Shown piece by piece: positions 2,533 through 17,895 of a stretch of 18,314 nucleotides of DNA. Both the position numbers and the translations under genes were made by a program. Numbering within the stretch: position 1 is the first letter of the stretch; each line of letters starts with the position of its first letter. The notes beneath the pieces were generated by a model, which saw only the letters and a program-made list of their open reading frames with translations, was not told where the DNA came from and did not search any database. Source of the stretch: a virus (taxonomy: Duplodnaviria; Heunggongvirae; Uroviricota; Caudoviricetes); IMG/VR virus record IMGVR_UViG_2526164632_000031. One strand, written 5' to 3'.

Positions 2533-2688
2533 TTACTTCTCAGATTCGTAGTCCACGAAGACAGCAACCTCCGTCTGGCCGGTTCGGATTCGTACCTCGC
2601 AGAGGTCTTTCCTCGTTACCAGTGCCGTCACTATGACGGTTAAACAGATGACGATAAGGGCGATTAACATCGCCTTTTGCTGCTTCAT
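2533..2688 (-). CDS. hokD: Hok/Gef family type I toxin (HokD/RelF-like)
   Basis: Translation MKQQKAMLIALIVICLTVIVTALVTRKDLCEVRIRTGQTEVAVF... is a canonical Hok membrane peptide; the ORF track extends it in frame to 2745, but the conserved Hok start is the ATG at 2688. Confidence 0.85.
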   Translation of the reverse strand: MKQQKAMLIALIVICLTVIVTALVTRKDLCEVRIRTGQTEVAVFVDYESEK

Positions 2689-2900
2689 AGCCTGCTTCTC
2701 CTTGCCTTTCGGCACGTAAGAGGCTAACCTACATTTGTGAGACATAGATTGGGCCTCAGATTAATGTTAAGCGTCTTGTAGGACGCGTAATGTTAACTGG
2801 GGCTTTTCTCTATCTGCCTTTTGGTGTTCATGCCTGAGGCAGATAGCCTCAAGCACCCGCAGCAATTCTAACTATCCAATAGATCAATGCCAACTTCTTT
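2689..2900 (-). promoter_or_regulatory. Structured hok mRNA leader region (possible mok/sok-type control region)
   Basis: Several stable inverted repeats (2771-2787 GCGTC..GACGC; 2810-2846 CTATCTGCC..GGCAGATAG; 2834-2850) immediately 5' of hok on the minus strand. Confidence 0.35.
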
Positions 2901-3245
2901 TCCTGCAACATCTCTCATCATAAGTGACCAAAATTCATCCAATCAGCACAAAAGAAACATTTAAAGCGTGAATGCTACCGAACGTTCATTTCAATTACAT
3001 CGTTTTGATTTTTAACAGTTTTTACCTCAACAAATCAAATGGCATTAGCATTCATCATGGAAGAAAGACTGATAAAAATGATCATTTTCAATGACTTATG
3101 ATCACACCGGGTATTGCCAAGTCATTCCTTTTACGCCAGGATACCCACAAGTGAGTAGTCGAGGAGAGTTTGCCAATTTTTGCGATATAAATTTCAATGT
3201 CCGAAGAACCATTAATTGTTAATTGATTCTGTATAAGGTATTAAC

Positions 3246-4343
3246 ATGACAATTTCATATATTCCTATTCTGAAAGCGAAACGTTCTGAGTTATCAGCTT
3301 TATCGCAGCTATCCATTGAAAAGAAATCAAAAATTTTGCCATTACTCGAAATTGAACCAGTGCCAATTGACCCTGATTCAGGTATTGCCTTAAAGAGTTA
3401 TAACGAGACTCTTATAGAGTTCGGAAAGAAAGTCTCAAAATCTTGCTCAGATATGCAAGGTGTTTATATTGATGGATTATTAATTGAAGAGCATTTTATT
3501 TCTCCTGAAGATCATTACCCTATAATAAATGCGGTTAATCAAGTTAGAGATATGGGGATAAGAGTTATTCCTGTCAGTTCACCAACTCGCCCATCTAACT
3601 ATAAAGGAGCGATTGATGAATTAATGCAGAATGAAATATGCTTGAGATTAACCACGTTAGATCTGGTTAACCCACAATTAATAACGCATTACATTAATCA
3701 TCTGGGAATTCCTTTATCAAATATTGATATAATTATTGACTTAAGAGATGAGTTAACCGAGGATAAACTTAATTCCGGCGAACTATATACTTTGGCAATG
3801 GGATTGATAAACAATCTGGCGCACCTCAATGAATACAGAAAAGTGATTCTTTCTGGGGGTTCATTTCCTACAGATCTCAGTGATATTTCTGTTGGTCTAT
3901 ATTCTCAACCTCGAATCGAGTGGATTTTATGGCAGAGTTTAATGAATAGAAAAGAACTTGCCAGAAATGTGATTTATAGTGATTATGGAGTACAGCACCC
4001 CGACTTTAATAGGCTTTCGACGCGATTCCCTAGCGTATCTGCCAGCGTCAGATACTCTGGAGATAATGACTTTTGGGTATTTCGAGGAAGAGTAGCTAAT
4101 CGCTTTGGTTATGAACAATATGGTAAACATAGTGAGGATATTCTTGCTCATCGAGAATATTCAGGGCCTACATTCTGTGCGGGAGATAGAGACATAGAAT
4201 ATTATGCAAACGAGTATCAAGCCTACAAAGCCAATCCCTCTGGTAACTATAAATTTGGTAGCCCAGAGGTATGGCGTAGGATTGGGCAAAACCATCACAT
4301 AACTAAGGTTGTTGAGCAACTCGCCACTCTTTACGGGCTTTAA
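3246..4343 (+). CDS. Uncharacterized cargo protein with Beta-protein / sce7725-like N-terminus
   Basis: 365-aa ORF, AAGG RBS 8 nt upstream, AT-rich codon usage; N-terminus MTISYIPILKAKRSELSAL resembles the Y-[IV]-P-[IV]-L-K-x-K-x-x-E start I associate with the Beta_protein (PF14350) / sce7725 family. Confidence 0.8.
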   Translation: MTISYIPILKAKRSELSALSQLSIEKKSKILPLLEIEPVPIDPDSGIALKSYNETLIEFGKKVSKSCSDMQGVYIDGLLIEEHFISPEDHYPIINAVNQVRDMGIRVIPVSSPTRPSNYKGAIDELMQNEICLRLTTLDLVNPQLITHYINHLGIPLSNIDIIIDLRDELTEDKLNSGELYTLAMGLINNLAHLNEYRKVILSGGSFPTDLSDISVGLYSQPRIEWILWQSLMNRKELARNVIYSDYGVQHPDFNRLSTRFPSVSASVRYSGDNDFWVFRGRVANRFGYEQYGKHSEDILAHREYSGPTFCAGDRDIEYYANEYQAYKANPSGNYKFGSPEVWRRIGQNHHITKVVEQLATLYGL

Positions 4344-4881
4344 GTTTAACTCGAACAGCTTCACGAAGCTCGCCAACATCCATACTATTGGCGAGTTTTG
4401 ACCATAAGACGCGTTTAGGTTTATTTTTCAAATTCTGTAGCTCCCCTACATCACTTAATAGGGAAAGCAATTCATCTTTCCAAAGAAGCATTGTTAAGGA
4501 AAGTTTGTCCACTTGTGGATTCAACTTGCTAGTTCGAATTGTTTTTAAATGGATACCTTGCCGTGCACCTTGCGTAACTTGCTTTATCCCCCACCATGAT
4601 GGAACTATGCTTAAAGCATCATAAAGATGGCAATCAGAGACAACCAACGTTACTTTATCCATCACTGATGAGTAATGTTGCACCTGCGCTGGTAATCTGA
4701 GCAAGTTATCACTTTTGCTCTTCAACTCATAACCATGTATAAGCCCATTGATCACTGCTATATCAGCTCTGCTAGCCCCCAGATTCATCGTAAACTCATC
4801 AATGATTAGGGTGTCAGGATCTTTATGATGATCTCTCAAAATCTTGGCATGCACAGCCTTTCTTACATCAATGTCTCTCAT
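4303..4881 (-). CDS. Uncharacterized cargo protein with PD-(D/E)xK nuclease-like motif (sce7726-like)
   Basis: 192-aa ORF; LIIDEF ... ASRADIAVING ... HGYELKSKSD gives an acidic residue then D-x(n)-E-x-K spacing typical of restriction-endonuclease-fold nucleases. Confidence 0.8.
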   Translation of the reverse strand: MRDIDVRKAVHAKILRDHHKDPDTLIIDEFTMNLGASRADIAVINGLIHGYELKSKSDNLLRLPAQVQHYSSVMDKVTLVVSDCHLYDALSIVPSWWGIKQVTQGARQGIHLKTIRTSKLNPQVDKLSLTMLLWKDELLSLLSDVGELQNLKNKPKRVLWSKLANSMDVGELREAVRVKLKARKEWRVAQQP

Positions 4882-5152
4882 ACCATAGTTGCGCTTTCAT
4901 CGACTCTCTCAAGCCATGATTCTATATCATGGTTCGCATGAATGCCATTTGATATGACCAGTGGTTAAACATTGCACAGAAAAGTGGATGTGTATTTTAA
5001 CAAAAGCAATGACGGCTAACCATGTTGGTATGTCGATAAAATGTTTCAACGTAAGCATTATCTGTTCCGCCCTTTCGGGCGGCCTCCTGATGTTCTGAGG
5101 GTGCAGAAATCCCTCCGGTTAAGGATTAAATTTTTAACAGTGCTAAATTTAA

Positions 5153-5509
5153 TTATTCAGTTCTGGATTTTGTCACCCTGCGTATCCGTGCTTTCGCATT
5201 ACGCTCAATCTGAATTAGCTTTTCTATATTTTTTCGCCTTTCCTGTTCCTCCTGGCGCAATAGTTTTACATCATCTGCCAGTCTGGTTTCTCTTTTCGCC
5301 ACAGAGAGCATCCAGTCAAATGGCTCCACAACTGCACCGCAGATTTTACAGCGGACCTGACGCTCTTTTTCGTCAACCCGGACAGAAGCGTGATGGCAGT
5401 ATGGTCTTTCCGATGGCTCATAAAGAAAATTAACCTGATTACGTGGGTCATCCTCTTTTACCGGAAATAAAACAATATTACTTAACTCATCTTCTGGTTT
5501 TATTTCCAT
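5153..5509 (-). CDS. Hypothetical phage protein with putative zinc-ribbon (C-x-H-H ... C-K-I-C-G) and basic C-terminus
   Basis: ORF track starts at 5566, but the in-frame ATG at 5509 has a strong AAGGAGAGGAG RBS; 118 aa from that start. Confidence 0.6.
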   Translation of the reverse strand: MEIKPEDELSNIVLFPVKEDDPRNQVNFLYEPSERPYCHHASVRVDEKERQVRCKICGAVVEPFDWMLSVAKRETRLADDVKLLRQEEQERRKNIEKLIQIERNAKARIRRVTKSRTE

Positions 5510-5566
5510 GCTCCTCTCCTTTGATGCGAATGCCAGCGGCAATTGAAGCCTGATAGCTAATTTCAC

Positions 5567-6007
5567 TCACAGCACCACCTCCTGAAAACTCCCCTGATAA
5601 AACGCCAGCACTCGCTGCATAACCTCACTATTCCGGCACTCGCGACAGATTATGTTCTGTCGTCTGTTGTAACGACGTATTTCTCCGTCTGGTAATGACC
5701 AGATAAGGTCAGGATCAACCACAACCGGTTTCTTCACCTTTGCCCTTGATAGTTTTTTGCGGGCGTTTTGCCAGTCTTTACGCGCCTGCTCAGACGGGAA
5801 TAATCCGTAGCCAGAATTGTAAACATCACCACTGGCGACCAGTTCTCTGGCGAGAGTGCTTATGTAATACCTTGATGCACCGGTTTTAGCCTCCAGAGCC
5901 CGTAACGTCTCGCGACCGCTCAGACGTACAAGTTCAACAACCTGCCCTTTAATTTTTCCCGCTCTTCTGGTGTAAATACTTTTGCCATAGGTGCCTCCGG
6001 CAATCAC
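5567..6007 (-). CDS. Hypothetical phage protein
   Basis: 146-aa ORF beginning with GTG, overlapping the upstream gene stop by 4 nt (translational coupling); no internal ATG alternative. Confidence 0.5.
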
Positions 6008-6765
6008 TTTTCCGATGCAACACAGCGAGAAGAATCAGTAATCTGTCGAACAATATCCCGGTGCTTGTTCAGTTCCCGCAGCGCAGCACAGACTCGTTCC
6101 CACTTCTGGACATGACTTTTCGCCCGACGCAGTTCGCGGTTTGCCATATGCAGCGATGGTAAAACCAGGTCATCCGCTCGCGTTTCAGTAAACGATGGCA
6201 GCGACTGCACAATGTCCGCCACAGTTTCTGTTTTAATATCTTCCTGTGTTGCAGCCTCACGTACTGGTAACGCAACACCTGCGGGCTGAGGAAAGGCCTT
6301 ACCATCAGTTTCCGCTACCGATGCTGCTTTCGGCTCTGCTGGTAAATTATCGCCCGGTATGCAGTAACGAAATTTACCGCCCTGATTTACGCGAATCAGA
6401 CGACCTTTGCTGATTGCCATTGCCAGCGTTGAAGCCACTTTGCGTGATGTGGTACCAAACAATGTAGCCAGCTCATCAGCCGTTTGTGGTCCGCGTTGTT
6501 CAATCGTCGCGGTTAAATCGCACTCTGAGATTTTCGCTACTGTTGCTGTGGTGGTTTCTTCCGGCAGTTCTGCCTGCGCTGGCTGTTCCTGCTGAACGTT
6601 GTTATCAGCCACACGCCAGGTGTACGCGCTTTTATCAACAAAACCAGCCTTTTTCAGTTCCCATAGTTCGTTCAGCACTTCTTCACGACTGATATCAAGT
6701 CGCGCAGCCAGCTCTACCGACGTGGCTTTTCCCATTGCTTTCAGTGCGTCAAAAACAGTCTCCAT
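6004..6765 (-). CDS. Hypothetical phage protein with N-terminal winged-helix-like DNA-binding segment
   Basis: Start chosen at ATG 6765 ([13 protein letters not shown]..., GGGAGA RBS 8 nt upstream) rather than the ORF-track start 6816, which overlaps the DnaC-like gene; motif [27 protein letters not shown]. Confidence 0.55.
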
Positions 6766-6787
6766 TAAATTTTTCTCCCGGTAAAAA

Positions 6788-7534
6788 TTACTTCGCAATT
6801 CCTGGCTGGACGACATTCGGACGCCAGCTCTCCCAGTTAAAATTCACCCAACACCCGCCGTTCATGGTCATGCGATCCATAATCCTCTCGCCGAGCAATG
6901 TTTTCATGGCCTCATAGTTCAGGTTTGTCAGCATTCCCACGCTACGCATCGACGCTGTCCGTCGATCAATAATCTGGTGCAGTACCACCTGCTCGTTTTT
7001 CGTCTCGCGCTGAATGCCAATTTCATCAAGAACCAGCAGATCCACTTCGCACAGCTCCCGCAAAAATTTTTCGCCTGACTGCCCGTCGTCATAGCTGGCG
7101 TGCAGGGCGCTCATAACATCAGCCACGGTAACCACAATCACTGTCTGACCGTCTTTCAGCAGGCGATTCCCGATAGCTGCCGCTAAGTGATTCTTCCCGG
7201 TACCAGGTTTTCCGCTGAACGCAAAATTTGTACACCCGGTCATCAGTTCATCGGCGATGGATTTCGCCTGGCTTAACGCGTATCGCTGCCCTTCGTTCTG
7301 CACCTGGTAATTCGCAAACGAGCATTTGCGGTGCAACGGCTGGATGCCAGAGCGATTCAGGATTTTTTCCACCCGCAACTGACGATTCAGGCGGTTGATC
7401 TCCTCGCAACGTTTCTGGCCTTCAGCAAGTTGCCACTCGCGCCACTCCGCAACCGTTCTGAATGGGGCGGTTACATGTGGTGGGGTCAGTCTGCGGATAC
7501 GCTCCAGAACGCCGCCTGTCGCAATATTTTTCAT
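6788..7534 (-). CDS. DnaC-like replicative helicase loader (IstB-type AAA+ ATPase, YdaV-like)
   Basis: 248 aa; Walker [14 protein letters not shown] and Walker B LLVLDEIG; position downstream of O-like gene. Confidence 0.9.
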
Positions 7535-10267: not shown

Positions 10268-10662
10268 CGGAATACCTTATTACTGGTTGTGTGAGAACTC
10301 CAGTATACCACCGAGCCTGAAGTGGTAAAAAGACAGGCGCACAACACGAAGGCGCATTTCCGGTATTCATAAAGAGTCGGTCTTGTCTGTTAAATTTAAA
10401 TGGTGGGAGTGCGCCTCCGGTTGTAAATAACGACATTGCTATGTGTAGTCTTTGGCGGCATCAGTTCTACTCCGTGGCTGCCCTGTCGCCCCTTTTTAAA
10501 GTGAATTTTGTGATGCGGTGAATGCGGCTAAGCGCACGCGGCACAGTTAAAAGCATCAGTGTTATGGGTGGATTATCCGGCGTTAATTGTTAACTGGTTA
10601 ACGTCACCTGGAGGCACCAGGCACCGCATCGACAAAATTCATTTGTAAAAATGGAGATAATT

Positions 10663-15712: not shown

Positions 15713-15775
15713 TATTTACTATGGCGGTGTAGCCTCACCGCCATAACAAAACTTTATTTTATGAGAGAAAAGACA

Positions 15776-15970
15776 ATGCGGTATGAAAAAGTCAAACCAT
15801 GTCCGTTTTGTGGTTGTCCATCAGTAACGGTGAAAGCCATTTCAGGATATTACCGCGCAAAGTGTAACGGATGCGAATCCCGAACCGGCTATAGTGGAAG
15901 TGAAAAAGAAGCACTCGAAAGATGGAATAAACGAACTACTGGAAATAATAATGGAGGTGTTCATGTATAA
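15776..15970 (+). CDS. ralR: Lar-family restriction alleviation protein (RalR-like)
   Basis: 64 aa from ATG 15776; MRYEKVKPCPFCGCPSVTVKAISGYYRAKCNGCESRTGY zinc-finger typical of Lar/RalR. Confidence 0.8.
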   Translation: MRYEKVKPCPFCGCPSVTVKAISGYYRAKCNGCESRTGYSGSEKEALERWNKRTTGNNNGGVHV

Positions 15971-16151
15971 AATTACTGCCACTATTGAAAAGGAAGGTGG
16001 CACTCCTACTAACTGGACAAGATATTCAAAATCTAAATTAACGAAATCAGAATGCGAAAAAATGCTCTCAGGGAAAAAAGAAGCAGGCGTTTCCAGAGAG
16101 CAGAAAGTAAAGCTGATAAATTTTAATTGCGAGAAACTTCTGTCCTCGTGA
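15963..16151 (+). CDS. YdaC-like small protein
   Basis: 62 aa from ATG 15963 (GGAGGTG RBS); position between ralR and xis as in Rac. Confidence 0.5.
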   Translation: MYKITATIEKEGGTPTNWTRYSKSKLTKSECEKMLSGKKEAGVSREQKVKLINFNCEKLLSS

Positions 16152-17581: not shown

Positions 17582-17895
17582 TTTTAACGTAAATGGATTG
17601 TTAAATGTATTTTGGTTGTGATATAACCAAAAAAGACCGGAATACAGAAATTCGAGTAAATTTCGGGGAATTTCGGGGAGACGTTTACAACTGATTGATT
17701 TTAAATACAATTAAAAAAGACCGAATACGATTCCTGTATTCGGTCCAGGGAAATGGCTCTTGGGAGAGAGCCGTGCGCTAAAAGTTGGCATTAATGCAGG
17801 CTTAGTTGCCTTGCCCTTTAAGAATAGATGACGACGCCAGGTTTTCCAGTTTGCGTGCAAAATGGTCAATAAAAAGCGTGGTGGTCATCAGCTGA
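17582..17895. other. Prophage/host junction region containing the int-proximal attachment site (core not identified)
   Basis: Non-coding; direct repeats AAAAAAGACCG(G)AATAC at 17629-17645 and 17713-17728; tandem AATTTCGGGG x2 at 17659-17678. Confidence 0.4.
17713..17745 (-). terminator. Hairpin plus T-tract (minus-strand orientation)
   Basis: GACCGAATAC-GATTCCT-GTATTCGGTC (10-bp stem) preceded on the plus strand by AAAAAA, i.e. followed by TTTTTT on the minus strand. Confidence 0.4.

Follow-up and report, generated by a model that had tools for sequence, protein, structure and literature searches.

An 18,314-nt window (the whole stretch of DNA that was analysed) from a Rac-like prophage of E. 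coli carries a gene for a 192-aa homologue of the cII protein of satellite phage P4. This protein very probably has the fold of restriction-enzyme-like nucleases, and its gene is arranged tail to tail with a gene for a beta-family protein. We propose that the two genes form a fixed module in which a P4 cII-family nuclease, together with beta, would act as anti-phage cargo of the prophage, and we give this explanation as a whole a probability of about 0.7. P4 cII has been without a molecular function since 1990, and the mechanisms of the validated gop-beta-cII and PD-lambda-2 defence systems have yet to be explained. The positions of all features are listed in Table 1.

Table 1. Features of the window discussed in the text, with strand and basis of assignment.
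Feature	Position	Strand	Basis or remark
Gene, 192-aa sce7726 / Phage_P4_cII family protein	4303..4881	-	ORF list, translation, NF033832 profile match
N-terminal PD-(D/E)xK-fold domain, residues ~1-119	4525..4881	-	predicted fold
C-terminal helical, mildly basic extension, residues 120-192	4306..4524	-	model and composition
Codons of invariant putative active-site residues, E29 to Y70	4672..4797	-	residue conservation
E29	4797-4795	-	codon read directly
D40	4764-4762	-	codon read directly
E52	4728-4726	-	codon read directly
K54	4722-4720	-	codon read directly
Q66	4686-4684	-	computed from frame
Y70	4674-4672	-	computed from frame
Partner gene, 365-aa Beta_protein family (P4 beta / PD-Lambda-2_C-like), predicted TIM barrel	3246..4343	+	profile matches, model
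3'-end overlap of the convergent genes, 41 nt	4303..4343	.	gene coordinates
Promoter-like site ATGGCA-18-TAGAAT, upstream of sce7726 gene	4919..4948	-	consensus scan, 9/12 matches; weak candidate
Variable cargo slot holding the beta/sce7726 pair	2895..5066	.	blastn against phage vB_EcoS-666R9; GC
hok/mok ORF	2533-2745	-	annotation; beside cargo slot
sok antisense RNA	2683-2858	region listed as 2533-2858 (-)	Rfam RF01794, 121.7 bits
DicF sRNA, in immunity region	10440-10491	+	RNA annotation
ralR toxin ORF	15761-15970	+	annotation
RalA antisense sRNA	15969-16147	-	RF02694, 223.8 bits
SraC/RyeA - SdsR/RyeB sRNA pair, just outside integrase gene	17709-17852		marks chromosomal edge of prophage

Gene and family assignment

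According to the ORF list and translation, the gene is read on the minus strand from 4881 to 4303 and consists of 192 codons and a stop (ATG at 4881-4879, stop codon at 4305-4303). The sequence-only reading that had first described this frame did not state its strand; the frame itself is real, and the strings singled out in it are present in the translation at residues 25-30 (LIIDEF), 36-46 (ASRADIAVING) and 49-58 (HGYELKSKSD). A plus-strand reading of the same interval was rejected because that frame is full of stops. The promoter and terminator scan of positions 2700-5200, from which the promoter-like site in Table 1 was taken, gave no more sites than shuffled sequence, and no terminator was found in it between the beta and sce7726 genes.

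The protein matches NCBIfam NF033832 (sce7726 family) with 191.1 bits (E-value: 1.7e-56; cut-off: 70 bits), and this match is full-length, with residues 1-184 aligned to positions 1-183 of the 184-position profile. It is also matched by the PADLOC model "cll" (E-value: 2.4e-28), which is the model of P4 cII (P4 cII scores 376 bits against it), and in a direct comparison it has 28% identity with P4 cII over 162 residues (E-value: 2e-17). Among the 120 homologues listed, all 120 have a precomputed match to Pfam PF26915 (Phage_P4_cII), including one that is 99% identical to the protein studied here. Pfam scans of the 192-aa protein (no match) and of 36 homologues at E-values up to 10 (no relevant family) were run with a copy of the database that apparently lacks PF26915. 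The RefSeq label of an identical gene is "sce7726 family protein", and homologues in some database records bear the labels "cII" and "regulatory protein". Judged from its sequence, the protein is a full-length sce7726 member and a homologue of P4 cII, and the NCBIfam sce7726 family corresponds to PF26915.

In a profile search (E ≤ 1e-3), the family comprises 5407 representatives of clusters at 50% identity. Its members are found in Proteobacteria, Myxococcota, Acidobacteriota, Firmicutes, Actinobacteria, Chloroflexota, candidate-phyla bacteria and phages. A search of the literature on sce7726 and on PF14350 and the beta family returned mentions in genome announcements only, the other papers being irrelevant ones on TGF-beta and amyloid.

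Predicted fold

An AlphaFold2 model of the protein was computed with 36 homologues (mean pLDDT 93.5, pTM 0.88). The modelled order of helices (H) and strands (E) is H3-20, E25-32, E37-44, E48-54, H63-73 and E76-82, which is the alpha-beta-beta-beta-alpha-beta core of the PD-(D/E)xK superfamily; this is followed by a helix at residues 83-92, two further strands and four C-terminal helices. The four helices make up residues 120-192, a part of the protein with a pI of 9.9 and 14 K+R versus 9 D+E residues, so that an earlier description of the C-terminal part as basic and helical holds modestly.

The sequence-only reading had proposed a PD-(D/E)xK nuclease and had named, among other checks, a profile-profile search and a structural model compared with known folds. 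In the second of these, the core order is present in the model, but the Foldseek evidence is weaker, with no match in the PDB at an E-value of 1e-3 or better, the top two matches being SfsA (probability 0.96-0.97) with weak E-values. Two family alignments used as HMM queries against PDB sequences gave nothing meaningful, and HMM-versus-sequence searches of the Pfam copy and PDB sequences established no profile-level link to a curated PD-(D/E)xK family. This absence does not count against membership of the superfamily, given that the profile-profile search had already been published for P4 cII: its HHpred matches are PF06319 MmcB-like (99.76%, E-value: 2.1e-17) and then, in order, AHJR-like, NucS, DpnII-MboI, PDDEXK_9/_3/_10, RecU and HSDR_N (Rousset et al. 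2022, Table S3). Both 3dnx/DUF1052 and SfsA are catalogued as PD-(D/E)XK families. The core order of the model and the published HHpred result for a family member support the proposal, and the 192-aa protein very probably has a restriction-enzyme-like nuclease fold, for which the nearest solved structure is the MmcB-like 3dnx, followed by NucS. The fold claim is not new, since it is already on record for the family.

Putative active site

Conservation was assessed in 75 distinct family members from many phyla, P4 cII included. E29, D40, N45, G46, E52, K54, S55, D58, R62, Q66 and G98 are identical in 75/75 of these proteins, and Y70 is kept in 73/75. In the model, D40 is placed on strand 2 (residues 37-44) and E52-x-K54 on strand 3 (residues 48-54), as is characteristic of the superfamily, while Q66xxxY70 sits on the helix after strand 3. 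Based on the modelled hairpin register (loops 33-36 and 45-47), we infer that E29, D40 and E52 would be opposite each other across three adjacent strands, with K54 on the same face. We take the order of the motif set (E29, D40, E52-x-K54, Q66xxxY70) to resemble that of RecB-type nucleases.

A D...ExK string by itself often arises by chance and proves nothing; in this protein the motif stands above chance because its residues are invariant in all 75 homologues across phyla. This invariance of the acidic and lysine residues makes metal-dependent cleavage of nucleic-acid phosphodiester bonds the most likely activity of the protein, and we think it probable that it is catalytically active, a real enzyme. 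No published nuclease assay for any sce7726-family member was found in a literature search. The fold assignment, together with the invariant site, opens the way to tests with the point mutants D40A, E52A and K54A.

The convergent beta gene

The partner gene encodes a 365-aa protein that matches Beta_protein PF14350 (E-value: 7.7e-52) and PD-Lambda-2_C (E-values: 2.8e-41 and 6.8e-38) and is 23% identical to P4 beta. It is modelled as a TIM barrel (pLDDT 91.5) and has many invariant charged residues. As the structure search returned generic TIM-barrel matches only, no specific enzymology can be assigned to beta.

The arrangement of the two genes was compared in 81 loci (the window and 80 genome loci retrieved by a search with the family alignment). 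The beta gene is convergent to the sce7726 gene in 78 of the 81, and in 76 of these 78 the 3' ends overlap (median 53 nt among the overlapping loci). Contig ends truncate two of the three loci without a convergent beta gene. The third, from Xenorhabdus koppenhoeferi (L011, 6001-7000), is uncut and has no beta gene; in it, the sce7726 gene is followed by a same-strand ORF with a protein-kinase-like HRDLKPANIL motif. The identity matrices of beta and sce7726 proteins correlate (Mantel r 0.77, a value reached by 0 of 999 permutations), which shows joint inheritance and not necessarily physical contact.

The region upstream of beta is variable. Nothing is present there in the closest enterobacterial relatives of the window, a HigB-like gene and an HTH-M78 peptidase gene (PD-Lambda-2_A and _B) are present in 14/77 loci, and HTH-S24 peptidases, an FRG/PDC-S15 protein or coiled-coil proteins are encoded elsewhere. 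A homologue of P4 gop was found in none of the 77 related loci. The 14 PD-lambda-2-type loci with a cII-like gene are L020, L037, L041, L043, L045, L047, L057, L058, L073, L075, L076, L079, L081 and L082. When loci were instead sampled via homologues of PD-Lambda-2_B, a convergent, overlapping Phage_P4_cII gene was present in 5/5 loci with B and beta; in these five (L088-L092, about 3700-7000 each), the cII-like gene overlaps beta by 49-50 nt. PD-lambda-2-type loci have a fourth gene, a convergent Phage_P4_cII/sce7726 gene, that is outside the published three-gene definition.

Prophage setting

The window is a Rac-like lambdoid E. coli prophage with recE/recT, kilR, ralR, ydaT/ydaV, hok/sok and an integrase gene. 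The beta/sce7726 pair is located in a slot with the hok/sok region on one side and replication-side genes on the other; between the same flanks, phage vB_EcoS-666R9 has different genes (blastn). The GC content of the slot is 0.378 versus 0.456 for the window. We regard the pair as a low-GC moron that occupies a variable slot of the prophage. The pair region is identical in several complete genomes, and at least 80% of window positions 2700-5200 is present in 93 of 5426 complete E. coli genomes. The hok/mok ORF and sok constitute a type I toxin-antitoxin module adjoining the cargo slot. A second type I pair of the prophage is ralR/RalA, in which RalR is an endodeoxyribonuclease toxin.

Comparison with known systems

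The gop-beta-cII system of P4, named "Rst_gop_beta_cll" in DefenseFinder/PADLOC, protects against lambda and P1 when cloned as three genes. Gop is toxic without beta, which acts as its antidote, and a phage accessory gene triggers cell death via the system. We found no paper in which cII is given a role, and the genes are among those of unknown function in a recent survey. The window has two features of this system, a cII-family gene and a convergent beta gene. Homology between P4 cII and the 192-aa protein extends across the nuclease domain and through most of the helical tail, and all of the invariant residues are common to the two; each is encoded convergently to a beta-family gene and is carried as non-essential cargo by a temperate mobile element. 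There are also clear differences. P4 cII is longer (264 aa versus 192 aa) and has an extra C-terminal region. P4 beta and cII do not overlap and have a terminator between them, whereas the overlap of the pair in the window is 41 nt long. The element that carries this pair is a Rac-like lambdoid prophage and not the P4 hotspot. Finally, gop is located upstream of beta in P4 and is absent from the window, where tblastn with P4 gop gave nothing below an E-value of 0.87; there is no ORF of at least 50 aa on the beta strand in 2689-3245, and no co-oriented ORF precedes beta.

PD-lambda-2 consists of a HigB-like protein (A), an HTH-M78 peptidase (B) and a beta-family protein (C); B is toxic, A neutralises B, and C is needed for defence (Vassallo et al. 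2022). Its published definition contains these three genes and no cII-like gene. The beta protein of the window corresponds to component C (PD-Lambda-2_C), but A and B are missing from the window, as tblastn with sequences from related loci gave nothing below an E-value of 0.37. Without gop and without HigB/PD-lambda-2B, the window falls under neither system definition.

Two structural relatives of the nuclease domain are also distinct from the 192-aa protein. MmcB-like/DUF1052 proteins (PF06319; 3dnx) lack a beta partner and the C-terminal helical tail and have other genomic neighbours reported, and the sce7726 family is considered separate from them because no match was obtained in the Pfam copy or among PDB sequences. 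NucS/EndoMS has an N-terminal DNA-binding domain that is missing from the protein of the window. No sequence-level match was obtained to NucS/EndoMS or to RecB-type minimal nucleases.

The copy in the window is a new copy of a known, mechanistically unexplained module and is ordinary in itself; its one practical value is that, as a minimal form without gop, it allows the core to be tested alone. More useful leads are the conserved architecture of the beta-cII core and its occurrence in PD-lambda-2-type loci. That the nuclease is found tail to tail with beta across phyla, and also in PD-lambda-2-type loci, suggests that the published systems share a core, one which current system definitions may split or miss.

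Proposed function and alternatives

In the explanation that we favour, a PD-(D/E)xK domain of ~120 residues with a basic helical tail of ~70 residues would cleave nucleic-acid phosphodiester bonds in a metal-dependent manner, probably as a DNA endonuclease. The protein would be one half of a fixed two-gene module with the convergent TIM-barrel protein beta and would be controlled by beta or act together with it, and the convergent 3' overlap may couple expression of the two genes. Encoded by the prophage, the module would defend against other phages through superinfection exclusion or abortive infection. Defence is considered the most likely role because the beta and cII core is found in both P4 gop-beta-cII and PD-lambda-2-type loci. 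By analogy with these systems, and in view of its place as prophage cargo, we rate the chance that the gop-less pair itself has a defence or exclusion function as about even.

Which protein of the module would do the damage is a separate question. The sequence-only reading had called the 192-aa protein the likely effector of the cargo pair, which goes further than is established, since the toxic component of the relatives is Gop in P4 and the HTH-peptidase PD-lambda-2B in PD-lambda-2. The nuclease is the only effector-type protein in the minimal form of the module, but in the larger relatives toxicity maps elsewhere, and we name it as the effector tentatively, at somewhat less than even chances.

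The strongest alternative is that the protein is an active nuclease with an accessory or regulatory role and not the killer; it might, for example, process nucleic acid so as to sense infection or to tune expression of the beta operon, with beta, alone or with upstream partners, providing the defence. This is consistent with the mapping of toxicity to gop and to PD-lambda-2B, with the requirement for beta in PD-lambda-2 defence, and with the "regulatory protein" label of some homologues; conservation of the 3' overlap points to transcriptional or antisense control of each gene by the other. The extent of the PD-lambda-2 clone points in the same direction: it ends 396 bp past the beta gene, the end of the system, and only these 396 bp beyond beta are left for another gene. 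Should the usual convergent cII-like gene be present in ECOR42, its promoter and active-site half would be missing from the clone; with the gene cut in this way, PD-lambda-2 defence would not need cII. However, there is no other toxin candidate in the two-gene form of the window or in its closest relatives, and a complete nuclease site kept across phyla is an obvious effector candidate. We regard an accessory role as unlikely, although it is better placed than the alternatives that follow.

The pair could also be a toxin-antitoxin addiction module, in which the nuclease is the toxin and beta the antidote, and whose main effect is to stabilise the prophage, without phage defence. The two-gene cassette does adjoin another addiction module (hok/sok), beta is an antidote in P4, and the pair is carried by mobile elements in many phyla. 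Typical type II toxin-antitoxin genes, however, are co-transcribed and encode a small, labile antitoxin, whereas here the genes are convergent and the partner is a 365-aa TIM barrel; moreover, both tested relatives give phage protection. This makes simple addiction improbable. Slightly less probable still is a restriction-modification-like or nucleotide-modifying pair, in which beta would chemically modify DNA or a nucleotide and the PD-(D/E)xK protein would cleave nucleic acid according to whether the mark is lacking or present. Least probable of all is a non-catalytic regulator that uses the fold for DNA binding alone: non-catalytic PD-(D/E)xK proteins exist, DNA binding is among the listed roles of the superfamily, the C-terminal tail is basic and helical, and the historical name "cII" of a lysogeny-related P4 gene and the "cII" and "regulatory protein" labels in database records would fit, but inactivated members usually lose the acidic and lysine residues, and E29, D40, E52 and K54 are invariant in 75/75 proteins.

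Returning to the defence module of nuclease and beta, a broader form of it can be put forward as speculation, and one that we think doubtful. Beta and cII might be a self-sufficient, two-gene immune core across many phyla, consisting of a TIM-barrel enzyme and an MmcB/NucS-like nuclease with a regulatory 3' overlap, to which gop, HigB and an HTH-M78 peptidase, an HTH-S24 peptidase or an FRG protein would be attached. P4 gop-beta-cII and PD-lambda-2 would then belong to one larger system family, so far unrecognised as such, whose common output would be the overlooked nuclease; beta might be the writer or the reader of a nucleic-acid modification.

Further copies of the pair

In GenBank, the two genes of phage Rac-SA53 are already annotated as "beta" and "CII phage-like protein", and copies of IS1 are inserted beside the pair in this phage (L084, 4449-5214). 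In E. coli PEC209, IS1 is located within the matched region and beta is annotated as two pieces, which suggests that the insertion splits beta. A second gop-less beta/cII pair (L085, 3134-4763; L086; L087) is carried by another E. coli lambdoid prophage in another moron slot, with the lysis cassette on one side and the Nu1 terminase gene on the other, and its nuclease is 54% identical to that of the window.
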